A DNA stretch of 29,984 nt from an uncultured Gemmatimonadota bacterium (GCA_964576115.1 CAZNUA010000043.1:1-29984), one strand, 5' to 3'; numbered from the stretch's first letter, positions 3,682 to 23,974 are shown. Notes: generated by a model from the sequence alone, not told the origin. Translations and numbers: made by a program.

Positions 3682-5001
3682 TCAATCGGACAGAACCGTC
3701 CGGACCGCCGTCACGGTGCGGGCCACGTCCTCCTCGGTATGGGCCAGCGAGGCAACCGAGTGCAGGGCCGCCGAGGGACTCATGTAGATTCCATGGGCGA
3801 ACAGATCGAGCGCCAGCCGCTGGTAGCGGGGACGATCGACGAAGGTGCAGTACTCGCGGAAGTCGGTGATCTCGGGCCGCCCGGTGAAGAGAATCTGCAG
3901 CATCGGCCCCACTCCCTGGGCGATCGCCGGAGTGCCTGTCTCGGCAAAGACGCCATTGAGTCCCTCGCGCAACGCCTCGCCGATTAACCAGGTATGCCGG
4001 TAGACCGCTCCGTCGTCGGCCAACAGAGTGCTCAGATTGGCCCGGGCGGCGAACATGCCGGCCCGCGAAGCGTTCTGGGTGCCGTAGTGCAGTACTCCGC
4101 CCCACTCGAGGGCATTCATGATTTCGGCCGGGCCCATGAAGGCGGCCACCGGCAGGCCCGCCCCCAGCCCCTTGCCCATGGTGACGAGGTCGGCGTCGAC
4201 ACCGTAGAGTTCCTGACAGCCTCCCGGTCCGATCCGGCAGCCGGTGACCGTCTCGTCGAGAACGAGCAGGATGTTCTCGGCCCGGGTGAGCTCGCGCACC
4301 TGCTGCAGGTAGCCTTCGCGGGGCGGGATCACACCCATGTTGGCCATGATGCCTTCGGTGATGACGGCTGCAATCTGACCCCGCTCGTTCGCGACCGCCC
4401 GTTCCAGGGCGTCGATGTCGTTCCATGGTACGACGATCGTATCCTCGAGTGCCCGCCGGTTCAGACCCGAAGAATCGGGGATCTTGACCGGATCGTTGCG
4501 GTGCCCCAGGCTGGCGGGGAGCTGGGGATGGGCGGTCACGAGGTAGTCGTCATACCAGCCGTGATAGTGCCCCTCGAACTTGATGAACTTCGGCCGCCCG
4601 GTATACCCGCGCACCAGCCGGACCGCAGCCATGGTGGCTTCGGTCCCTGTATTGGCGAAGCGGACCTTCTCGGCTCCCGGCACGGCCCCGCAGAGCAACT
4701 CGGCCACCTCCACCTCGACTTCGGTGGCGGCGGCGAAGAGGGTTCCAGTCTCGGCCGCCGCCGTGATCGCTTCGACGATGACCGGGTGGGCGTGCCCGAG
4801 AGGCAGGGCCCCGTAGGCCATCATCCAGTCGAGGTAGCGGTTGCCGTCGGCATCGGTGATACAGGCTCCCTCCCCCTTCTCGATGAAAAGCGGATAGGCG
4901 CCGTAGTTGGCCGGGCCGCGCGAGGGTGAGCTGCCGCCCTCGACCATGACCTGCAGGGCCCGGTCAAAGAGGGCGCGCGATCGTTCGGTGGAATGAGACA
5001 T
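3682..5001 (-). CDS. Class III PLP-dependent aminotransferase, glutamate-1-semialdehyde 2,1-aminomutase (HemL)-like family
   Basis: 439 aa. HemL-like motifs: LVLDETVTGCRIGPGG, PLP-lysine context DLVTMGKGLGAGLPVAAFMG, YGTQNASRAGMFAARANL. ATG start with an AAGGA SD 8 nt upstream. Whether it is a true hemL or a paralog with another substrate cannot be decided from sequence alone. Confidence 0.85.
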   Translation of the reverse strand: MSHSTERSRALFDRALQVMVEGGSSPSRGPANYGAYPLFIEKGEGACITDADGNRYLDWMMAYGALPLGHAHPVIVEAITAAAETGTLFAAATEVEVEVAELLCGAVPGAEKVRFANTGTEATMAAVRLVRGYTGRPKFIKFEGHYHGWYDDYLVTAHPQLPASLGHRNDPVKIPDSSGLNRRALEDTIVVPWNDIDALERAVANERGQIAAVITEGIMANMGVIPPREGYLQQVRELTRAENILLVLDETVTGCRIGPGGCQELYGVDADLVTMGKGLGAGLPVAAFMGPAEIMNALEWGGVLHYGTQNASRAGMFAARANLSTLLADDGAVYRHTWLIGEALREGLNGVFAETGTPAIAQGVGPMLQILFTGRPEITDFREYCTFVDRPRYQRLALDLFAHGIYMSPSAALHSVASLAHTEEDVARTVTAVRTVLSD

Positions 5002-5058
5002 GATATTGTCCTTGCTCTCTCGGTGGTGTTTCGCGCGATGCCTGCCCCGGAATGTATC

Positions 5059-6189
5059 TCAGAGGGTCACTCCCAGACCGGCGGCGTATTCCCGGAAGCG
5101 TGCCATCAGCTCACCGGCCCGCGCTTCGGTATCCTCCGGCCTGAGCCTGCGACAGTCATAGCCGAGTTCTTCGCGCATGATTCCGGCCGTCGAGTCGGTG
5201 AAGACCGCCGTACCGTCCGCTTCTATGCGTTCGATCCCGTCGAAGCGGTGCGAGTCCTCGTTCATCCGTACGGCCTCTTCATGGGGCAGGTCCGGGATCG
5301 GATGAAGTTCGATCCTGCCCCGGCCGATGCTGACCGGATATCCGCCGGCCAGACCGCCGGGGGCCGGCAGGTGGGTCAGGGTTCCCGGTCCGGCGAAGAG
5401 GGCCCGTATCAGGCCCAGGAACGAGCCGGCCGTAAAGGTGTTCCAGGCCGGTCCCCCCGGCAGGGCGCAGGGGGAAAAGAGGAGTTCGTCCACTGCGACC
5501 TCACGGGTCACATCCCGACCGTCGTGTTCGACGCGCAGATAGTACGGCGGCACATCTCCCTCGAACCGGCTGCCCGTGAACACGGCTTTCTGCAGGGCGT
5601 GGTGGGCGACCATGAGTACCCGCACCTCTTCGAGAGGCGAGCCGAGTTCACGGGCCGCGAGCCAGCGCACCTTGGTGACGTTCTCGTCGATATTCCCGAT
5701 CCCGGCCGCTGGAGCCAGCCCGATCCGTCCCAGCATGCAGTTGACAACATCGGGAAAGGGCGCCGTCAGGCATAGTCCCTGCCAGTCGGCTTCGGCCAGA
5801 GCCTGCATGAGGTGGAAAGTCAGGGTGAAATTGATCGGCAGCCAGGCTCCGAAACGGGCCCGGGCCAGGCGCTCGCGGTTCTCAACGGGGAGCAGATCGA
5901 GCAGCCACCAGGTCTGCAGCGAGGCGGTCGAGAGAATCAGATCGGGATCGATACGTTCGATGAGTTCGACGACAGCCGCGTGATCGCGCAGATCGAGCGG
6001 TTCGAAGGCCAGGTCGGGGTCGGCACCGCGGGCCAGGGCGGCCAGCCGGGCCAGCCGGCAGCGGTCTTCGGCCCCTGAAGAGGCCAGGTCGCAGGCGACG
6101 ATACGACCGGGGAGCGGATCGGCGGCCAGCAGATCGAGGATCGCTCCCCCGAGGTGACCCACCCCAATCAGAAGAATGGTCGGTTTCAT
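5059..6189 (-). CDS. Saccharopine-dehydrogenase-like NAD(P)-binding oxidoreductase
   Basis: 376 aa. N-terminal Rossmann motif ILLIGVGHLGGAILDLL, followed by the architecture of the Sacchrp_dh_NADP family. No obvious SD. A TATGAT sits about 8 nt upstream of the ATG, so the gene may be leaderless or poorly coupled. Confidence 0.75.
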   Translation of the reverse strand: MKPTILLIGVGHLGGAILDLLAADPLPGRIVACDLASSGAEDRCRLARLAALARGADPDLAFEPLDLRDHAAVVELIERIDPDLILSTASLQTWWLLDLLPVENRERLARARFGAWLPINFTLTFHLMQALAEADWQGLCLTAPFPDVVNCMLGRIGLAPAAGIGNIDENVTKVRWLAARELGSPLEEVRVLMVAHHALQKAVFTGSRFEGDVPPYYLRVEHDGRDVTREVAVDELLFSPCALPGGPAWNTFTAGSFLGLIRALFAGPGTLTHLPAPGGLAGGYPVSIGRGRIELHPIPDLPHEEAVRMNEDSHRFDGIERIEADGTAVFTDSTAGIMREELGYDCRRLRPEDTEARAGELMARFREYAAGLGVTL

Positions 6190-6247
6190 GATCAGTCATC
6201 ATATCGGCCCGGACCGGTCTCATCCAGGTGCTGTTCGTCGTCGGGGT

Positions 6248-6823
6248 TCAGGCGCAGACAGGCGGATCGTGTTCCCGGGCGAGGAGAAGGTCGCGCAGAG
6301 CGGCCCGGGCGTTGTGCAGGCGGCTGGCCACCGTGCCGGCGGGGATGTTCAGTACGGCCGCGATTTCGCTGTAATCGAGTTCCTCGATATCCTTCAGGAT
6401 CAGGATCTCGCGATGAAGGGCCCCGAGGCGGTTCAGGGCCTGCCAGAGATGTTCGCGGATTTCGGCCTCGATCAGGGCCCGGTCGGGCGCCGGGCCGGGA
6501 TCGGGCAGAACGGTCAGCGGGGCTGAGGTCCAGGTGCGTTCCCCTTCGCGTCCATTGCGGGAGCGGAGCCGGTCGAGGTAAAGGTTGCGGGCGATCATGA
6601 AGAGCCAGGGGACAAGCGGCCGGTCGGAACAGTAGAGGTGCAGGCGGCGGTAGGCCCGAATAAAAGTGTCCTGGGTCAGATCGCGGGCTTCGTCGGCATC
6701 ACCAGTGAGCCGGTAGAAGTACCCGTACAGACGCCCTTCGTAGGCACGCACGATCGGTTCATAAGCCGCGCCCTCCCCCGCCCGGCACCGTTCGAGCAGG
6801 CTCCGCTCCTCATCCCGGCTCAT
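6248..6823 (-). CDS. ECF-type RNA polymerase sigma-70 family factor (sigma-24 subfamily)
   Basis: 191 aa with region 2 (YEGRLYGYFYRLTGDADEARDLTQDTFIRAYRRLHLY) and region 4 (LDYSEIAAVLNIPAGTVASRLHNARAALRDLL). Its ATG overlaps the stop of the upstream SPFH gene by 1 nt (TGATG). Confidence 0.85.
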   Translation of the reverse strand: MSRDEERSLLERCRAGEGAAYEPIVRAYEGRLYGYFYRLTGDADEARDLTQDTFIRAYRRLHLYCSDRPLVPWLFMIARNLYLDRLRSRNGREGERTWTSAPLTVLPDPGPAPDRALIEAEIREHLWQALNRLGALHREILILKDIEELDYSEIAAVLNIPAGTVASRLHNARAALRDLLLAREHDPPVCA

Positions 6824-8001
6824 CAGTCGTCGCCTTCCTCCCCCTTCGAGCCGGCGGCAGTGCCGGGAGACGTCGTTTCTTCCGGTTTGCCCGGCCCGGT
6901 CGGGCCGGCGGCACCGGTCTTGCCGGGGATTTCCTTGTCGAATGCGGTCAGGCCGCCGAGTGCCCCCAGTCCCATGGTCTCCACCGCGGTGGAGGGCACG
7001 ATGATCATCGAGCCTTTCTGACGCAGCCCCTCATAGACCATGTTCATGGCCCGCAGGTGCAGGGCCACCGGGTTGTCCTGGTAGTTCTCCGAGGCCTTGG
7101 CGAACTTCTCGGCGATTTCGGTTTCGGCCGTGCCGAGAATGATACGGCTCTGGCGCTCCCGCTCGGCCTGGGCCTGGCGCGACATGGCGTCCTCGAGCCC
7201 CTGGGGAATGATGATGTCGCGGATCTCGACCGCCTGGGTGGTGATCCCCCAGGCGCTGGTTTTTTCATCGAGCACCTGCTGGATCTCCTCGCCCAACCGG
7301 TCGCGCTCGGAGAGCAGGACCGCCAGATCGTACCGGCCGATGGCGTTCCGCAGGGCGGTCTGGGCCGAGAGAATGACCGCCTGTTCGAAGCGTTCGACCT
7401 CGAGGACCGCTTTCTCGGCATCCCAGACCATCCAGAAGGCGATCGCATCCACGCTCACCGGAACGGTGTCACCGGTCAGGGTGGTTTCGGCGCTGAAATC
7501 GCTGACCCGGATCCGCTGATCGACGAACTCGGCGACTTTATCGATGACCGGGATCAGGATGAACAGGCCCGGCTTGCGCAGGCCCGTGAAGCGCCCGAAA
7601 CGCAGCAGGACCGCTTTCTCCCACTGGTAGGCGATCTGGATCGCAGGGGTCACAAGCAGGGCCAGGGCCAGGGTGATGAGAAGGACATCGCTCTCGGGGC
7701 GCAGGATCAGATAGATCGCCAGCCCGTCGAGGGTACCCATGACCGTAATCGTCTCCCATACCTGGAATAGACGCAGCAGCCCCACGAAAGCGACCGCGGA
7801 CCCGAGGGTGATCGCTACGGCCTCTTCCGAGAAGGAGTAGCGGCCCAGATGAACGACCAGGCCGATGATGAAGATGCCGATCATCAGCAGGGCGTTGTGC
7901 GGGGCGAAACGGAAATCGGCCCGGAGCGATTTGGCGAAGGTATCGGGGGACAGCCAGTTCAGGCTGCTCGTTCCCGACCCGGAAGATTTGTTCTGAGTCA
8001 T
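6823..8001 (-). CDS. SPFH/band-7 (stomatin/prohibitin-like) membrane protein with extended multi-helix N-terminal membrane region and acidic Gly/Pro/Thr-rich C-terminal tail
   Basis: 392 aa. About 3 hydrophobic helices in residues 35 to 125, then the band-7 core (QWEKAVLLRFGRFTGLRKPGLFILIPVIDKV ... AVEIRDIIIP ... coiled-coil ERERQSRIILGTAETEIAEKFAKASE). ATGA overlap with the upstream GntR gene and TGATG overlap with the downstream sigma gene. Confidence 0.85.
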   Translation of the reverse strand: MTQNKSSGSGTSSLNWLSPDTFAKSLRADFRFAPHNALLMIGIFIIGLVVHLGRYSFSEEAVAITLGSAVAFVGLLRLFQVWETITVMGTLDGLAIYLILRPESDVLLITLALALLVTPAIQIAYQWEKAVLLRFGRFTGLRKPGLFILIPVIDKVAEFVDQRIRVSDFSAETTLTGDTVPVSVDAIAFWMVWDAEKAVLEVERFEQAVILSAQTALRNAIGRYDLAVLLSERDRLGEEIQQVLDEKTSAWGITTQAVEIRDIIIPQGLEDAMSRQAQAERERQSRIILGTAETEIAEKFAKASENYQDNPVALHLRAMNMVYEGLRQKGSMIIVPSTAVETMGLGALGGLTAFDKEIPGKTGAAGPTGPGKPEETTSPGTAAGSKGEEGDD

Positions 8002-8375
8002 GTCGATGTCTCCTGGCGATGGCGTAAGGCTTCGACCAGATCATCGGGAGTGAATCCGTAGGCGGCGGCGCGGATCATCAGTTCGGTCGTGATCTGGTCG
8101 ATCATCCGCCGGCGTTCGCCCTCATCGATCTCGACTTCCTTCGAGCTGATGAAAGTACCCGAGCCCTGCTGGGAGTCGAGCAGCCCTTCGATCTCGAGTT
8201 CCCGGTAGGCACGAACGACGGTGTTGGGATTGATGGAGAGATCTACAGCCAGCTGGCGGACGGTGGGGAGTTGCACGCCCGGCTTGAGTTCACCCCGGGC
8301 GACGGCGTACCTGATCTGTTCGATGATCTGACGGTAGATCGGTACTCCGCTCAAGGTGTCGATGAAGAATGTCAC
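7998..8375 (-). CDS. GntR-family transcriptional regulator, short YtrA-like subfamily
   Basis: 125 aa. N-terminal winged HTH (IYRQIIEQIRYAVARGELKPGVQLPTVRQLAVDLSINPNTVVRAYRELEIEGLL) and a short C-terminal helical tail typical of YtrA. GTG start with an AAGGGGAG SD. Confidence 0.8.
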   Translation of the reverse strand: MTFFIDTLSGVPIYRQIIEQIRYAVARGELKPGVQLPTVRQLAVDLSINPNTVVRAYRELEIEGLLDSQQGSGTFISSKEVEIDEGERRRMIDQITTELMIRAAAYGFTPDDLVEALRHRQETST

Positions 8376-8430
8376 CTGTTCCCGCTCCCCTTTTCCCCGT
8401 CTGCCGGTGGCTGGAGACGGTCTGACTTAA

Positions 8431-8450
8431 TGTACTAGTATATTAGTACA
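8431..8450. promoter_or_regulatory. AT-rich palindromic operator candidate TGTACTA-N6-TAGTACA immediately upstream of the GntR-SPFH-sigma operon
   Basis: Perfect 7-bp inverted arms with a 6-bp AT spacer. It sits in a ~45-nt AT-rich island (ttaatgtactagtatattagtacaatagttcaat) about 55 to 75 nt upstream of the GntR GTG. A TTGAAC -35-like hexamer lies on the minus strand beside it. Typical layout for GntR autoregulation. Confidence 0.5.
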
Positions 8451-8553
8451 ATAGTTCAATACGGCTGTCAAGGGAGGGAAGGTTCGTTTTTTCCCAGAGA
8501 TATTTTTCGCGCTCGCTTCACCGACGAAGACATCGCACCCGAACGAAGGCATG

Positions 8554-8593
8554 CGGGTACAACAGGTAAGGCGTACGGGTGCAACAGGTATGG
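8554..8593. repeat. Tandem direct repeat, 2 x 18 bp (CGGGTACAACAGGTAAGG / CGGGTGCAACAGGTATGG), 22-bp period
   Basis: 16/18 identical units two helical turns apart, in a 486-nt gene-less gap. About 180 nt upstream of the GntR operon and about 270 nt upstream of the plus-strand hydrolase gene. Coordinates are approximate. Confidence 0.4.
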
Positions 8594-8633
8594 ACTATCC
8601 GCCCGGGATAGGTGGAGCGGAGAAACGGCCCGC

Positions 8634-8756
8634 TCTATTCTTCCCGCAGAACGTTCATGATCGTCATCCGTGCCAGCCGCCGCGAAGGCAGCACCGACGC
8701 CAGCGTAGCGACCGCCAGCATGATGCCCAGGGCAACCAGATAGGCCCGGATCAGAC
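8634..8756 (-). pseudogene. Relic 3'-terminal fragment of a MacB/FtsX-family permease gene (about 40 codons, no start)
   Basis: The minus-strand frame reads LRLIRAYLVALGIMLAVATLASVLPSRRLARMTIMNVLREE*. The tail LASVLPSRRLARMTIMNVLREE matches the conserved C-termini of the two intact permeases in this window (…ASLFPALLAARIAPAETLRSE and …ANAVPALRAARVDPVITLRDE). An in-frame stop lies immediately upstream and there is no initiation codon. Confidence 0.5.
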
Positions 8757-8861
8757 GCAACTACCGCTCCCGTGACGTCGTTCAAAACACAAGGACGCGG
8801 ATAGGCTCATTCCCGGGTAAACCCGCCGGCCCGGGTACCGAACCGAAAGGGGATCCGGACC

Positions 8862-10430
8862 ATGCCGCCTGTGCGGATCGGACGACACCGCCTCATCCTG
8901 TTGATTGCTCTACTCCTCTTTCTTCCGGCAGCAGTCGGCTGCGGGGGCTCCGAACCGGTTTCCGAAACCCGGGAGAGCGTGCTCGACCGGGTCGTCGCTC
9001 TCCGGGAGATCCGCTACGAGGTGCCGGCCATCCCCCGCTGGTGCGATCGGATCGAGACCCTCGAAAAACACCGTGTCAATGTCGGGGACTGCGAGCTGTA
9101 CGTCGAAACCGAGGGCCGGGGCACTCCGCTGGTCCTGGTCAACGGCGGTCCGGGCGGCACCCACCACTGCTTTCATCCCTGGTTCTCGCTGGCCGCGGAA
9201 TTCGTTCAGGTCATCTACTACGATCAGCGCGGGTGCGGTCTCTCCGACCGCACCCCCGGTCCCGAGGGCTACTCGGTACAGCAGGCCGCCGCTGACCTCG
9301 AGGCAATCCGGCAGGCTCTCGGCCACGAGACCTGGACGGTGCTGGGATATTCCTACGGGGGATTTCTGGCCCAGTGGTACGCGATCTCTCATCCGGAGAG
9401 CGTGTCGGGTCTGGTCCTGCTCGGGGCTGCACCCGGCCTGTGGACCGAGATGGAACCGACCCGGCAGTACGACTACATCTCCACCGAGGAAAGAGAACAC
9501 CTGAACGGGATCCGGAGCGAACTGCAGACGCACTACCGCGAGCAGGGATGGAGTCATGAGCACTACCTGCAGTTGCTGCTCTACAACAACCACCTCAACG
9601 CCGACTGGAAGCGGCAGAATTTCTACCGCCCCTCGACCGAGCGCTGCGCGGAGATCGCGCTCTATGAATGGGATCACGCCGATGAGTTCCGCCGCCAGCT
9701 GATCCCGACCATGGACGCCATCGATCTGAGCGGCGCCTTCGAGGACTGCCCCATTCCGACCCTCATCCTGGAGGGTGAGTGGGATCTGACCTGGAACACC
9801 GACAAACGCGATCTGCTGCTCGACAACCACCCCGGAGCCGAGCTGATCGTGTTCGAACGGGCCGGGCACGGCATCTACGACGAAGACACCGATGCCTTCT
9901 TCACCACCCTGCGTCGCTTCCTGCGTCGCCTGCCGCGCGTGCCGCAGCGCCGCCTCGCAGCCTGGCAGGAATACCTGGCTGACTGGAACCAGGCCCGACT
10001 CGCCGATCCGCGCTATCTCATCCGGCAGTGCAATGAAGGCCATGCCGCCTATCTCGAACTTGCGAACCGATACCGCTCCGACTGGCTCGCGGGAGTACTC
10101 GGCTCGAGCGAACTCCGCATCGTCGGGCATGCTCTCTACGACGCCACCCGCTACGATGACGCCCTCGAGGTCTTCCGGATCCTGGAAGAGACGGCGCGCG
10201 ACCGTGATGATGAGACCTATCTCGCCATTGCCCTGATCTGGCAGGGCCACATGCTCGACCTGCTCGATCGGCGCTCCGAGGCCGTCGCAGTGTATGAACA
10301 GGTACGGGACATGGATCTGGGCGAGGATGGCATGCGGCACGACCAGTTCGGCCTGGCGATCGTATTCGATTCGTGGGTTGCTGAACGTATCGAATCGCCG
10401 TTTACCCGGGTCGAGAACCGGTGGCCGTGA
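8862..10430 (+). CDS. Alpha/beta hydrolase, prolyl aminopeptidase (S33)-like catalytic domain, lipoprotein, with about 170-aa C-terminal helical (TPR-like) extension
   Basis: 522 aa. Signal peptide plus lipobox (LLLFLPAAVGCGG). HGGPGG oxyanion-type motif (LVNGGPGGTHH), DQRGCGLS, nucleophile elbow GYSYGG. AAGGGGA SD 9 nt upstream. The 521-aa antisense ORF 8910..10475 is a GC shadow. Confidence 0.8.
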   Translation: MPPVRIGRHRLILLIALLLFLPAAVGCGGSEPVSETRESVLDRVVALREIRYEVPAIPRWCDRIETLEKHRVNVGDCELYVETEGRGTPLVLVNGGPGGTHHCFHPWFSLAAEFVQVIYYDQRGCGLSDRTPGPEGYSVQQAAADLEAIRQALGHETWTVLGYSYGGFLAQWYAISHPESVSGLVLLGAAPGLWTEMEPTRQYDYISTEEREHLNGIRSELQTHYREQGWSHEHYLQLLLYNNHLNADWKRQNFYRPSTERCAEIALYEWDHADEFRRQLIPTMDAIDLSGAFEDCPIPTLILEGEWDLTWNTDKRDLLLDNHPGAELIVFERAGHGIYDEDTDAFFTTLRRFLRRLPRVPQRRLAAWQEYLADWNQARLADPRYLIRQCNEGHAAYLELANRYRSDWLAGVLGSSELRIVGHALYDATRYDDALEVFRILEETARDRDDETYLAIALIWQGHMLDLLDRRSEAVAVYEQVRDMDLGEDGMRHDQFGLAIVFDSWVAERIESPFTRVENRWP

Positions 10431-12762: not shown

Positions 12763-15504
12763 TTACTCGCTGCGCAGGGTCTCGGCCGGAGCGATCCGGG
12801 CCGCCAGCAGGGCCGGAAAAAGACTGGCCACGAACGCGATCACTCCCAGCAGGACCATGGGGATGCCGAGAATGACCGGATCGAAGGGCTGCAGGCCGGG
12901 GATAGCGGTGCTGGCCAGAACCGCAGCACCCAGGGCGAAGACGAAGCCGACCCCCAGTCCGATGATCGTCAGGCGCATCCCCCGCCCGATCACATGGCGC
13001 AGGACGTTTCCCTTGACCGCCCCCAGGGCGATGCGGATACCGATCTCGCGCTTTTGCCGGTTCACGAAATACGCTACCAGACCGTAGAGCCCGATCGAGG
13101 AAAGCAGGATCGCGATCAGTGCGAAGGTCCACATCGCAACGGTAGCGATCTGGAAGGGCATCAGGGCGAAATCGATCCGCCCCGTCATGGGGTTGAGCTC
13201 GTTGACCGGCAGGCTGGGATCCAGTGCGGCCACTTCTCGCCGGACGGCATCGGCCAGGAGCAGGGGATCGGTCGAGGTCCGGATGTGGACGTTCATCATG
13301 CCGTTGTAGTTCTGCCCGTAGGCGTAATACATATACGATTTGGGATCCTCGCCCAGCCCCAGGTACTTGCCGGTCGGAACCATCCCGACGATCTCGTGCC
13401 AGTTCCCACCGTGCAGCACGCGTTTGCCCAGCGGAGATTCCTCCGGCCAGAAACGATCCCGGAAGGCCTCGTTGACAATCACGACCGGACGGCTGTCGGG
13501 GGTATCGAAGACCGTGAACGGCCGCCCCTCCACGATCGGGATCCCCAAGGTGGTGAAATAGTCCTCATCGACGGTGTTGACGTCGACCATGATTCTCTCG
13601 CCTTCGGGAATCTCGTAGCCCTCGATTTCGATCGTGTGGGTCACCAGCGAAAGACTCAGAGGGATGGTGAAGGCCAGACCGGCCGACTCGACCTCGGGCA
13701 GACCCATCAGGCGTTCCTTGATCTGGCGGTAGAAAAGCCTCCCTTCCGCTTCGCTGTAGCGGTTCAGGAGCAGGTCGACCTGGGCTACGAGCTGGTGCTC
13801 GGGATCGAAACCGGGATTGACCGAACGCATCTGCTGCATGCCCTTGAGAACCATGCCCCCGCCGACCAGCAGGGTGAAGCTGGCAGCTACCTGGACCGCC
13901 ACCAGCGCCCGGCGCGAGAACGATGCCCGGCGGGGTTGTAAACCGAGACCTGTTTTCAGGGCCGAGGTGATGTCTTCGCGCGAGGCGAAGAGCGCCGGGG
14001 CCAGGCTGATCAGGATCGTCGCCAGACCTGATGACACGAAGATGAAGCCGATATCGCTCCAGGCGAGCGCACTACCCGAACCGAATTCCATCGGCATATC
14101 GAGAGGAATGGAGATATTTCCGCTGGCCTGTCCGAGCAGGGCCGCCAGCAGAAGCGCACCAAGCCCTGCCAGACCGGCCAGGACGGCGCCTTCGATCAGC
14201 AGCGAGCGCATCAGGCGACCCCGGCCGGCACCTAGAGCCATGCGGATGCCGATTTCCCGCCTCCGGCCGGCGGTGCGGGCCAGCAGCAGCCCGGCCACGT
14301 TGGCACAGGCCAGGACCAGGACGAAGACGATCATGGCCAGGCCGAAGACGATGAAACGCTGGAAATCCCGCCGGACCATCGGATCGAGGCTGGCCTGACG
14401 CTCGGGGAGGAGATTGAAGCTCTTGCCGGTAAAGAGATCGGGGTACTGTTCGCCCAGCTGCTGCTGGACTGCGGCGACCTGTTCCTGAGCCTGCACGAGG
14501 GTCGCTCCCGGCGCGAGCCGGCAGATGATGCTCCGGAAATTGTGATCGCCCCGGTTATCGATGCCGCCCAGAAGGGGTGCGGCCACTTCATGCATCGCCA
14601 CCGGTACCCAGAAACGCATGACCAGCCCGACCGAGTCGCCCTGGTACCCTTCTTCGGCCACCCCGATGACGGTGAAGGGGTACCGGTTGATCTGCACCTG
14701 GCGACCGATCACATCGGGATCGCCGCCGAACTCGCTCTGCCAGAAGGCGTGGCTGATGATCATGACCGGGTGGGTGCCTTCGGTCTCATCTTCTTCGGGC
14801 AGAAAATCCCGTCCCAGGACGATCTCGCGTCCCAGACAACGGAAATAACCGGCGGATACCAGCGAGCCCCAGATCCGCCGTCCCGCACCCTCGTTCGTCA
14901 GGTTCATCGGCATGGAGGTAGTGAGAACGGCGCAGGAGAAGGCCTCGACCCGGTCGCGGATGTCCTCGAAGTCGGGAACGGAAACCGAACCCCAATCCAT
15001 CGACCCTTCCCAGGCGGTGTAGATCCGGGTGACCTGCTCGGGATTCCGGGCCGGGGAGGATTGCAGGAGAGTCTGTACGGCCATGCTGTAGAGAAAGGAT
15101 CCGCCCGCCATGGCGATTGCCAGACAGAGCACGGCCGCGATCGAAACCCCGGGACGACGGCGGAGCTGCCGCAGAGCGATCCGTACATCCTGCATCAGGT
15201 CGGTCAGGGTCAGCCAGCGACCGCCTTTGAGACGAAGGTGATCGTCCACATCGCGAACCCACCTCTCGGAACGCGAGGGCCGGTTCGGCTCTTCGGCCGC
15301 TTCCACTCCACCGGCGAACTGTTCCCAGTTAAAACGCTCGACGGCCAGCCGCTCAGCCTCGGCGGGCGCCGAACCGTCGGCGAGCGCCTCGGTGTAGAAA
15401 TCCTCGAGTTGCCCGGCTATTTCTTCGATGATCCGCTCGGCCCGCAGGTCTTTGAGGTCGGGAAAGTCGACCCGCTCTCTCACAATGCGCTTCCAGTCAG
15501 GCAT
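12763..15504 (-). CDS. MacB/FtsX-like ABC-transporter permease of the duplicated 'ADOP' type with N-terminal permease-prefix domain; no adjacent ATPase gene
   Basis: The ORF extends to 15603 (946 aa). The ATG at about 15504 (MPDWKRIVRERVD…) has a perfect AGGAGG SD 8 nt upstream. Prefix domain (EEIAGQLEDFYTEALADGSAPAEAERLAVERF), MacB-like start (DVRIALRQLRRRPGVSIAAVL), two periplasmic domains and two FtsX 4-TM modules. C-terminus LFPALLAARIAPAETLRSE. Confidence 0.85.
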   Translation of the reverse strand: MPDWKRIVRERVDFPDLKDLRAERIIEEIAGQLEDFYTEALADGSAPAEAERLAVERFNWEQFAGGVEAAEEPNRPSRSERWVRDVDDHLRLKGGRWLTLTDLMQDVRIALRQLRRRPGVSIAAVLCLAIAMAGGSFLYSMAVQTLLQSSPARNPEQVTRIYTAWEGSMDWGSVSVPDFEDIRDRVEAFSCAVLTTSMPMNLTNEGAGRRIWGSLVSAGYFRCLGREIVLGRDFLPEEDETEGTHPVMIISHAFWQSEFGGDPDVIGRQVQINRYPFTVIGVAEEGYQGDSVGLVMRFWVPVAMHEVAAPLLGGIDNRGDHNFRSIICRLAPGATLVQAQEQVAAVQQQLGEQYPDLFTGKSFNLLPERQASLDPMVRRDFQRFIVFGLAMIVFVLVLACANVAGLLLARTAGRRREIGIRMALGAGRGRLMRSLLIEGAVLAGLAGLGALLLAALLGQASGNISIPLDMPMEFGSGSALAWSDIGFIFVSSGLATILISLAPALFASREDITSALKTGLGLQPRRASFSRRALVAVQVAASFTLLVGGGMVLKGMQQMRSVNPGFDPEHQLVAQVDLLLNRYSEAEGRLFYRQIKERLMGLPEVESAGLAFTIPLSLSLVTHTIEIEGYEIPEGERIMVDVNTVDEDYFTTLGIPIVEGRPFTVFDTPDSRPVVIVNEAFRDRFWPEESPLGKRVLHGGNWHEIVGMVPTGKYLGLGEDPKSYMYYAYGQNYNGMMNVHIRTSTDPLLLADAVRREVAALDPSLPVNELNPMTGRIDFALMPFQIATVAMWTFALIAILLSSIGLYGLVAYFVNRQKREIGIRIALGAVKGNVLRHVIGRGMRLTIIGLGVGFVFALGAAVLASTAIPGLQPFDPVILGIPMVLLGVIAFVASLFPALLAARIAPAETLRSE

Positions 15505-15554
15505 CAGAGGCTCCTCCTGGTGCGGGGGCAGGTCCGAGCCAGCCGCACCCCGGG

Positions 15555-15588
15555 TATCTGGTCTGAGGATATATCGCGTGACCAGATA
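15555..15588. promoter_or_regulatory. Inverted repeat TATCTGGTC-N16-GACCAGATA flanking an AT-rich GATATAT element, about 50 to 85 nt upstream of the permease-1 ATG
   Basis: 9-bp perfect arms whose spacer contains TATATC (-10-like on the minus strand). It lies within the 5' extension of the long ORF, which argues that the extension is untranslated leader/promoter. Candidate repressor operator. Confidence 0.35.
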
Positions 15589-15628
15589 TACGACTTCTCT
15601 CATCCGCTGGTTTCATCAGTCCGTCACA

Positions 15629-23459: not shown

Positions 23460-23566
23460 TGCCATTCCCCCCAACTGTGCCCATACCATTCGCTCTACCG
23501 GGCCAGTCTTTAGTACGGCCCGAAGAGTCGACTTGTTGCTGAAACCCGCTCCGGTATTGCGTCGTA

Positions 23567-23597
23567 TTGTCAGATACCTTAATGAATTAGGTATGAT
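23567..23597 (+). promoter_or_regulatory. PadR promoter/operator: TTGTCA-19-TATGAT with the inverted repeat ATACCT-N9-AGGTAT filling the spacer; GTATTG direct repeat just upstream
   Basis: AT-rich island cgtcgtattgtcagataccttaatgaattaggtatgatact, about 45 nt upstream of the PadR ATG. 6-bp perfect inverted arms. Classic autoregulatory layout. Confidence 0.45.
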
Positions 23598-23641: not shown

Positions 23642-23974
23642 ATGAGCGGCAGCGATATCTTTACCGGCACTCTCGACCTGCTGATCCTCAAGGCGGTGGC
23701 CCGCGAACCCCTGCACGGCTATGCCATCGGCCGCTGGATCAGGCAGCAGAGCCGGGAGACCCTGCAGATCGAGGAAGGCGCCCTGTATCCCGCCCTGCAC
23801 CGGCTTGAGGGCAAAGGCCTGCTGAGCAGCGACTGGGGCGCGAGCGAGACCGGCCGCCGGGCCAAGTTTTACGCTCTCACCCCCGCCGGGCGGACCGCCC
23901 TGGTCACCGATGAGGAGCGCTGGCTGGCTCACTCCGAGGCCGTACGCACCGTACTCCGGGGCGCGGAGTCCTGA
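23642..23974 (+). CDS. PadR-family transcriptional regulator
   Basis: 110 aa. LDLLILKAVAREPLHGYAIGRWIRQQS…EEGALYPALHRLEGKGLLSSDW…KFYALTPAGR is the canonical PadR winged HTH. GGGGG SD 6 nt upstream. Confidence 0.85.
   Translation: MSGSDIFTGTLDLLILKAVAREPLHGYAIGRWIRQQSRETLQIEEGALYPALHRLEGKGLLSSDWGASETGRRAKFYALTPAGRTALVTDEERWLAHSEAVRTVLRGAES

Follow-up and report, generated by a model that had tools for sequence, protein, structure and literature searches.

Introduction

How is an extracytoplasmic function (ECF) sigma factor controlled when no anti-sigma factor is encoded beside it? The question is raised by a 29,984-nucleotide stretch of DNA from an uncultured Gemmatimonadota bacterium (GCA_964576115.1, CAZNUA010000043.1:1-29984), referred to here as the window. 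On its minus strand, genes for a GntR-type regulator, a stomatin-type SPFH protein (slipin) and an ECF sigma factor follow one another with overlapping starts and stops. An earlier reading made from the sequence alone (the sequence-only reading) proposed that the SPFH protein serves as membrane anchor or anti-sigma factor for this sigma factor. Comparison across related loci argues against that role. The explanation that we consider probable is that a GntR-repressed slipin operon acquired a sigmaW-like ECF gene lacking an anti-sigma partner, and that the sigma factor would be gated at the level of transcription.

Organization of the locus

The GntR gene (7998-8375, minus strand) begins with GTG and encodes 125 residues. 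It is followed on the same strand by the slipin gene (6823-8001, 392 residues) and the ECF sigma factor gene (6248-6823, 191 residues). In the raw sequence, the slipin start overlaps the GntR stop in an ATGA at 7998-8001, and the sigma start overlaps the slipin stop in a TGATG at 6821-6825. Each of the three starts is preceded, at a distance of 8-12 nucleotides, by a purine-rich, Shine-Dalgarno-like stretch. Open reading frames (ORFs), sequence and Pfam agree on these genes and overlaps, which the sequence-only reading had placed correctly, and the expected profiles (GntR, Band_7, Sigma70_r2 and Sigma70_r4_2) were all matched. Start/stop overlaps are frequent in operons, and as evidence alone they carry little weight.

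The conserved unit is a GntR-slipin pair

Slipin loci were collected in a scan with one genome per species. The scan returned 369 loci, of which the best 80 were retrieved (L001-L080). All 80 come from metagenome-assembled genomes (MAGs), with no isolate genome among them. Their labels span at least eight phyla and include Gemmatimonadota, Acidobacteriota, Planctomycetota, Latescibacterota, Fibrobacteraceae, Krumholzibacteriia, Myxococcota and others. Upstream DNA was available for 77 loci and at least 800 nucleotides of downstream DNA for 74; operator and promoter counts refer to 76. Adjacency of GntR was scored by tblastn of the window proteins against the 80 loci. Adjacency of sigma was scored with a hidden Markov model (HMM) of sigma homologues against all ORFs of these loci, counting the next co-directional gene, and the recurrence of other neighbours was scored by all-against-all clustering of the flanking ORFs.

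A GntR gene lies directly upstream of slipin in all 77 loci with upstream DNA, at 57-79% GntR identity, and the great majority of loci where the junction can be resolved show the 4-nucleotide ATGA overlap. Besides GntR, no neighbour recurs in more than 13 of the 80 loci. An ECF sigma gene comes next after slipin in only 2 of 74 (L001 and L066), so that about 97% of the cassettes are without one. Judged by these neighbourhoods, the conserved unit is a predicted two-gene GntR-slipin operon, not a three-gene module.

Slipin identity between phyla (means 74-79%) is about equal to that within phyla (75-82%). Recent horizontal transfer was considered as the cause of this high identity and rejected, because the GC content of the cassette tracks that of its flanks (r = 0.94, mean difference -0.001, range 0.49-0.68). 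The same agreement indicates that constraint acts on the protein rather than on the DNA, and that the cassette has long resided in its hosts. An older transfer of the cassette may have taken place, since 17 of the 67 labelled loci have their nearest neighbour in another phylum. To judge from these identities, the protein-level constraint on slipin would be unusually strong for a membrane scaffold.

The commonest third gene after slipin, far commoner than a sigma gene, encodes a protein of ~500-540 residues with no Pfam match. In 13 loci, most of them from Gemmatimonadota, it lies ~100 nucleotides downstream in the same orientation (L006, L021, L025, L026, L029, L031, L033, L035, L038, L043, L048, L062 and L072). 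A DUF6868 membrane protein of ~90-106 residues is encoded downstream of slipin in L004, L010, L011, L017 and L053. In one Vicinamibacterales MAG the cassette is found on two contigs (L057 and L060) with identical tblastn coordinates and scores, which reflects either duplication or assembly redundancy. A defence-island origin was also considered and dropped; PADLOC gave no match for the four genes searched apart from one marginal hit (E 0.001).

A YtrA-type repressor and its predicted operator

The GntR protein carries a winged helix-turn-helix (wHTH) domain (PF00392, residues 14-76, E 2e-17, over the gathering score), followed by a short C-terminal part of ~49 residues. The NCBIfam models for PmtR and Rv1152 align to it over nearly their full length, the PmtR model covering residues 1-117 of 125, with 66-67 bits against cutoffs of 170-200. 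The MocR, HutC and FadR models match the wHTH only. Its closest relatives in the PDB are short GntR proteins of 121-134 residues (3neu, 4ham, 3by6 and 4r1h), aligned over residues 11-120. A wHTH, a total length within ~120-130 residues, and a short C-terminus without a ligand domain of the FadR, HutC or MocR type place the protein in the YtrA subfamily.

Autoregulators of this subfamily include YtrA of the Bacillus subtilis ytrGABCDEF operon, PmtR of Staphylococcus aureus and Rv1152 of Mycobacterium tuberculosis, with structures 3neu, 4r1h and 3by6. They share with the window protein a length of ~125 residues and the wHTH with short C-terminus. YtrA-type operons encode membrane proteins linked to envelope stress. 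As in the window, the repressor gene is the first of the operon that its product would repress, and a palindromic operator lies over the promoter. The known systems differ in the partner, which is an ABC transporter there and a stomatin-type SPFH protein here. A literature search found no paper treating YtrA together with SPFH, and nothing relevant connecting GntR with stomatin operons. The GntR-slipin cassette, as a variant of YtrA-type autoregulated membrane-protein operons, appears undescribed.

Upstream of the GntR gene, GC content falls to 0.50 across 8300-8600, compared with ~0.64 in the surroundings. The AT-rich promoter region with a perfect 7-6-7 palindrome that the sequence-only reading described is indeed present. 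The palindrome, TGTACTA-N6-TAGTACA (TGTACTAGTATATTAGTACA, 8431-8450), is the predicted GntR/YtrA site and the single perfect match in the window. A second operator-like site with 3 mismatches overlaps it at 8439-8458, where chance would give 0.08 sites at up to 3 mismatches. Within 150 nucleotides upstream of GntR, the motif is found in 8, 27, 56 and 71 of 76 loci at 0, 1, 2 and 3 arm mismatches, respectively. The corresponding numbers in the other 656 kb of the same loci are 0, 0, 0 and 2. The palindrome is thus far above chance, because it is conserved across loci.

The operon promoter was recognised from the cross-locus alignment. Its -35 element is TTGACA at 8466-8471 (minus strand), and TTGAC is found upstream of GntR in 67 of 76 loci. 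Its -10 element, TACTAA at 8443-8448 (minus strand), follows 17 nucleotides after the -35 and lies within the upstream arm of the operator. The combination TTGACN-N16-18-TAYTAN, with the -10 inside the TGTAYTA arm, is present in 34 of 76 loci, and the spacer is 17 nucleotides in 30 of these. A consensus promoter scan of 4800-9000 called no sigma-70 promoter; the scanner missed this one because TACTAA ends in A and fails the T6 rule.

GntR bound at the operator would occlude both the -10 and the start site. Comparison across loci thus gives good support to autorepression by this YtrA-type protein, with binding deduced from the position and conservation of the site. The proposal that a YtrA-type repressor gates the unit fits these data: the predicted operator covers the -10, and the layout is kept in most of the 76 loci. 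The 5' leader of the operon also holds a short hairpin, CCGTCT…AGACGG (8400-8425), between the operator and the GntR start. This hairpin is not evident in L001.

The sigma factor and its rare linkage to slipin

The sigma protein consists of regions 2 and 4 only (Sigma70_r2, E 5.8e-16; r4_2, E 2.9e-14) and passes TIGR02937 with 95.5 bits against a cutoff of 42.9, which is the architecture of an ECF (group 4) sigma factor. The best NCBIfam models, PRK11922 and SigW, reach ~114 bits against cutoffs of 204-209. The protein scores below the SigW equivalog thresholds (PRK09641, 114.5 against 209; TIGR02948, 106.8 against 243). Region 2.2 has an acidic DADE motif (DADE…DLTQDTF), and there is no C-terminal extension. 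With these two features, the protein is unlike the phosphorylation- or extension-controlled ECF types (PMC8999054).

The co-transcribed anti-sigma gene that is canonical, though not universal, for ECF sigma factors is not found beside this one. The search covered the 24 predicted genes of the 30-kb window with Pfam, which revealed no anti-sigma domain (zf-HC2, RskA or other). An HMM for the zf-HC2 anti-sigma of this sigma clade likewise found no homologue in the window. The sequence-only reading was right that no recognisable anti-sigma gene lies nearby. Slipin itself has no anti-sigma domain in Pfam.

Conserved co-occurrence of slipin and sigma is essentially absent, as is evident from the 2 loci in 74. 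Of the two, L001 stands nearest to the window, with slipin at 84% identity, sigma at 70%, and then the same 376-residue gene (71%) that follows sigma in the window. The other, L066, is a Planctomycetaceae MAG in which a 171-residue sigma (6249-6764), 29% identical to that of the window, is separated from slipin by a 145-nucleotide gap with GC-rich hairpins. By our estimate, which was not computed formally, such an adjacency is expected by chance about once in 74 loci, given the many ECF genes per genome. Two ORFs past the L066 sigma (233 and 198 residues) were considered as anti-sigma genes and set aside; they have no Pfam match, no hydrophobic segment and an implausible composition, and are probably not genes.

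Four GntR-slipin-sigma triples were found in all: the window, L001 and, from searches that started with the sigma, L090 and the P0122 contig. Their slipins are 79-87% and their sigmas 70-82% identical to those of the window, and the L090 triple matches the window at 86% (GntR), 87% (slipin) and 82% (sigma). All four belong to one narrow lineage, the closest named relative of which is a Gemmatimonadota MAG. The other 79 slipins define 176 alignment columns with conservation of 95% or more, and the three sigma-linked slipins differ at not one of them.

Relatives of the sigma factor number 75 matches in total, of which 4 are at least 70% identical over the full length. They occur in several settings. 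The closest ones without slipin, L086 (1-1494; sigma 76%) and L082 (1678-4018; sigma 81%), lie behind a PadR gene and an unrelated 189-residue membrane protein. The N-terminus of this protein resembles the "permease prefix" of acidobacterial orphan permeases. The L082 sigma is cut at residue 116, is followed by a thymidylate-synthase-like ORF and lies beside an AbiEii gene. At 47-51% identity, sigmas end an operon of overlapping genes composed of a ~208-residue polytopic protein (no Pfam match), HTH_34 and sigma, with no anti-sigma (L084, 2059-3633; L087, 2072-3645; L088, 2047-3735). TGAAAC-N16-CGTAT lies ahead of this operon in L084 and L088. At 44-53% identity, the order is sigma, zf-HC2 anti-sigma and YbjQ_1 (L081, L083, L085 and L089); in L085 the gene after sigma has no Pfam match, yet resembles the other two anti-sigmas. 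Directly upstream of the sigma operons in L081, L083 and L085 is TGAA(A/G)A-N15/16-CGTATC.

The slipin-sigma junction indicates how the two genes came together. About 24 nucleotides before the sigma ATG, the sequence GG(A)GAGGAAGGC(G/A)(A/C)CGACTGATG is common to the window, L090, L086 and L082. In L086 and L082 this sigma leader is intergenic and stands behind an unrelated gene. In the window and L090 the leader (GGAGGAAGGCGNCGACTGATG) is translated as the slipin end …GEEGDD and supplies the slipin stop. The leader and ribosome-binding site of the window (GGGGGAGGAAGGCGACGACTGA, 6824-6847, minus strand) are thus now the last slipin codons and stop. This shared leader implies that the apparent translational coupling of slipin and sigma is a junction scar, and that the sigma gene brought along its leader and ribosome-binding site.

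RsiW, the partner of B. subtilis sigmaW, is a zf-HC2 anti-sigma factor. SigW models are among the best matches of the window sigma, yet stay below the equivalog cutoff (114 against 209 bits). The related sigma operons resemble the sigmaW system in having a zf-HC2 anti-sigma and TGAAA(A/C)-N15-16-CGTAT promoters. The sigmaW system differs in that the anti-sigma is present and SPFH genes are targets of the regulon, whereas in the window, which is from another phylum, the SPFH gene lies upstream in the same operon. In B. subtilis, sigmaW controls the SPFH genes floA and floT (PMC8144471). The known link between SPFH proteins and ECF sigma factors is thus regulon membership, not sigma sequestration. 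ECF sigma factors without a cognate anti-sigma can be set by a transcriptional regulator, as has been documented for HrpL and SigE; for ECF203, such control by TetR repressors has been proposed (PMC8999054). The window sigma is like these in having no cognate anti-sigma and in its apparent control at the level of transcription; the likely controller here is the GntR/YtrA repressor of the operon that received the sigma gene.

Features of the slipin

Slipin matches only Band_7 families in Pfam (PF01145, E 1.9e-32, residues 126-292). Among solved structures it aligns to PH1511 (E 3.8e-39) and human stomatin (5e-37), both over residues 111-337, and to QmcA (8e-29). As in a stomatin, a coiled-coil region with homology to stomatin comes after its Band_7 domain. 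More than 8000 homologues are known; full-length identity is 70-87% for the top 120, which databases name "slipin family protein".

The long polytopic N-terminus noted in the sequence-only reading is borne out. Hydrophobic segments lie at ~36-52, 60-80, 83-100 and 105-124, and the solved stomatin, QmcA and HflK/C chains align from residue 106-111 on only, which leaves three of the ~4 hydrophobic helices, those in residues 1-105, beyond the solved SPFH chains. An AlphaFold2 model, which was poor overall because its 21-sequence alignment was too shallow and too similar (mean predicted local distance difference test score 48, predicted template modelling score 0.26), was used solely to count N-terminal helices and suggests helices at 33-54, 59-79, 82-100 and 105-135. 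A search with residues 1-125 (window 7627-8001, minus strand) against 1.84 billion representative proteins gave only 80 matches. Most of these are fragments of genes from the slipin family itself, and neither remote homologues nor combinations with other domains were among them. The acidic tail was also confirmed; residues 353-392 contain 8 acidic and 4 basic residues, are rich in Gly, Pro and Thr, and are variable in the family.

Prokaryotic stomatin operons (Pyrococcus horikoshii PH1511-PH1510, Escherichia coli QmcA-YbbJ) and the human stomatin cages share the Band_7 domain and coiled coil with slipin (E 1e-29 to 1e-39), as well as a hydrophobic segment directly before the SPFH domain. Compared with them, slipin has three extra N-terminal helices without a homologue outside the family, and is coupled to a repressor gene instead of a recurrent NfeD-type neighbour. 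An adjacent NfeD-family partner is typical of prokaryotic stomatin operons without strictly defining them. None was found by Pfam among the neighbours in the window, and no neighbour other than GntR is recurrent in the 80 loci.

Candidate targets and downstream genes

TGAAAC and CGTA form the sigmaW promoter consensus (PMC5758882). TGAAAC-N16/17-CGTAT has exactly 2 matches in the window, compared with 0 in 100 shuffles. Both are TGAAAC-N17-CGTAT sites that are intergenic and in the correct orientation, with an inverted repeat directly after. One (23540-23567, plus strand) lies 75 nucleotides before a PadR gene (23642-23974, plus strand; Pfam E 1.1e-20) and is followed by the repeat ATACCT-N9-AGGTAT at 23574-23594. 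The other (15588-15615, minus strand) lies before a duplicated permease gene of the MacB_PCD/FtsX type and is followed by ATCTGGTC-N16-GACCAGAT at 15556-15587. Each has the look of an ECF promoter overlapped by a repressor operator. Genes for PadR and for permeases of this type are likewise found beside related sigma loci. A sigmaW-like envelope-stress regulon that is driven by the window sigma and includes these two promoters would fit the observations.

Broader ECF promoter patterns were also tried and gave 3-6 matches in the window, near chance; the exact TGAAAC-N16/17-CGTAT alone is significant. A sigmaW-type site with 2 mismatches at 8459-8486, over the -35 of the operon, was rejected, as such sites are estimated to occur about once per 2.5 kb by chance and this one is absent in L001. 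The permease ORF spans 12763-15603 (minus strand, 946 residues). The promoter motif extends over its first in-frame ATG, at 15603, and the start is probably the ATG at 15504 after GGAGGAG, giving the N-terminus MPDWK.

The next two minus-strand genes after sigma encode a 376-residue protein and then a class-III aminotransferase. The former (5059-6189, minus strand) begins 58 nucleotides after sigma and encodes a Rossmann-like protein. It was called an unrelated dehydrogenase in the sequence-only reading. The GxGxxG motif at its N-terminus is present; no sequence match was found in Pfam, NCBIfam, PADLOC or the PDB, and "dehydrogenase" is a guess. The gene follows sigma also in L001 and on the P0122 contig. 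A terminator scan of 4800-9000 found none between the genes. With no terminator-like site past sigma, the transcript may extend into the 376-residue protein and aminotransferase genes.

Proposed mechanism and alternative explanations

The following sequence of events is proposed. A sigma-70-type promoter would drive the GntR-slipin operon, its -10 and start region covered by the 20-bp operator. GntR would shut off its own operon until a signal, presumably from the membrane or envelope, lifts repression and slipin is made. In one narrow lineage, a sigmaW-like ECF gene would have joined the 3' end of slipin with its own leader and ribosome-binding site, leaving its cognate zf-HC2 anti-sigma gene behind. 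Provided that the transcript runs through sigma and that the genome as a whole lacks a cognate anti-sigma, the sigma factor would be made only upon derepression and would be active at once, so that transcriptional gating replaces sequestration. It would then activate TGAAAC-N17-CGTAT promoters, for example those of the PadR and MacB/FtsX-type permease genes. Slipin would be a co-expressed effector, not a regulator of sigma.

Several points weigh against this proposal. The assignment of the operator to the repressor is deduced from position and conservation. A promoter within the slipin gene may drive sigma, or transcription may terminate ahead of it. The anti-sigma search covers 30 kb of the genome. 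The two sigmaW-type promoters could serve another ECF sigma factor of the same genome. Neither within the operon nor ahead of it was an autoregulatory promoter of the sigmaW type detected; the best candidate there has 2 mismatches and is at chance level. Lastly, the sigma-linked slipins are among the more divergent ones, ranking 4, 5 and 8 of 82 by mean identity.

This divergence counts in favour of the view that slipin has been co-opted in the lineage of the window as the membrane anchor or anti-sigma of sigma, releasing it upon a membrane signal. The overlap of the two genes is likewise kept (TGATG in the window and L090, ATGA in L001), no anti-sigma gene is present in the window, and the closest relatives of sigma also directly follow a membrane protein. 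A second, unrelated ECF sigma after slipin, in L066, could be added to this list. Other points weigh against co-option. The only lineage-specific part of slipin, its extreme C-terminal tail, is the translated former sigma leader, and not one of the 176 highly conserved columns is altered. The membrane proteins ahead of related sigmas are unrelated to one another, and the L066 pair, with its gap, its hairpins and its distant sigma, is at chance level. Nearly all slipin loci do without a sigma, relatives of the sigma at 76-81% identity do without slipin, and slipin bears no anti-sigma domain and has an N-terminal module of 125 residues without relatives beyond its family. Taken together, co-option is highly improbable, and slipin as an anti-sigma factor is very unlikely from these comparisons; the slipin-sigma pairing is ordinary.

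A different possibility is that the adjacency has no regulatory meaning and the overlap is a rearrangement scar. Sigma would then have its own expression signal, and an unlinked anti-sigma or other post-translational control encoded outside the window. The sigma did bring its own leader with a Shine-Dalgarno sequence, relatives at 44-53% identity are paired with a zf-HC2 anti-sigma, and the 30 kb searched are part of a contig of at least 142 kb. Its three different contexts within 70-81% identity also point to a mobile gene. Such a gene would need a promoter of its own, for which there is no room outside coding sequence, and no sigmaW- or sigma-70-type promoter was detected inside the 3' end of slipin. 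Moreover, four members of the lineage in the sample retain this gene order, with sigma identities as low as 70%, and none of the 5 contexts of sigmas with at least 70% identity has an adjacent anti-sigma. We regard an adjacency without meaning as unlikely, and a repressor-gated operon that captured the sigma gene as the better account of the locus.

Biological implications

A broader interpretation would link these observations. Sigma genes of this clade are found in three settings: behind GntR and slipin, behind PadR and the 189-residue protein, and behind the 208-residue protein and HTH_34, over 3 + 2 + 4 loci in all. The GntR-slipin pair might be an undescribed, unusually constrained membrane-signalling cassette in which slipin is the sensor that controls its own repressor, and the sigmaW-like clade, having lost its zf-HC2 anti-sigma, might have been captured on three separate occasions at the 3' end of operons of a small winged-helix repressor and a polytopic membrane protein. 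We offer this as a tentative and rather doubtful idea. If true, pairs of a repressor and a membrane protein would be a general, interchangeable substitute for the anti-sigma factors of ECF sigma factors.

Had an SPFH protein been found to act as an anti-sigma factor, this would have amounted to a new paradigm of regulation; the comparative evidence against it spares two-hybrid and structural work on the wrong pair. What remains is a predicted repressor-operator-promoter unit conserved in bacteria, mostly uncultured, of at least eight phyla, together with a stomatin-type protein that appears to be under exceptionally strong purifying selection. In the lineage of the window, this unit would provide a natural example of an ECF sigma factor that exchanged control by an anti-sigma for transcriptional gating by a repressor, and the window also contains two candidate promoters for it to target.

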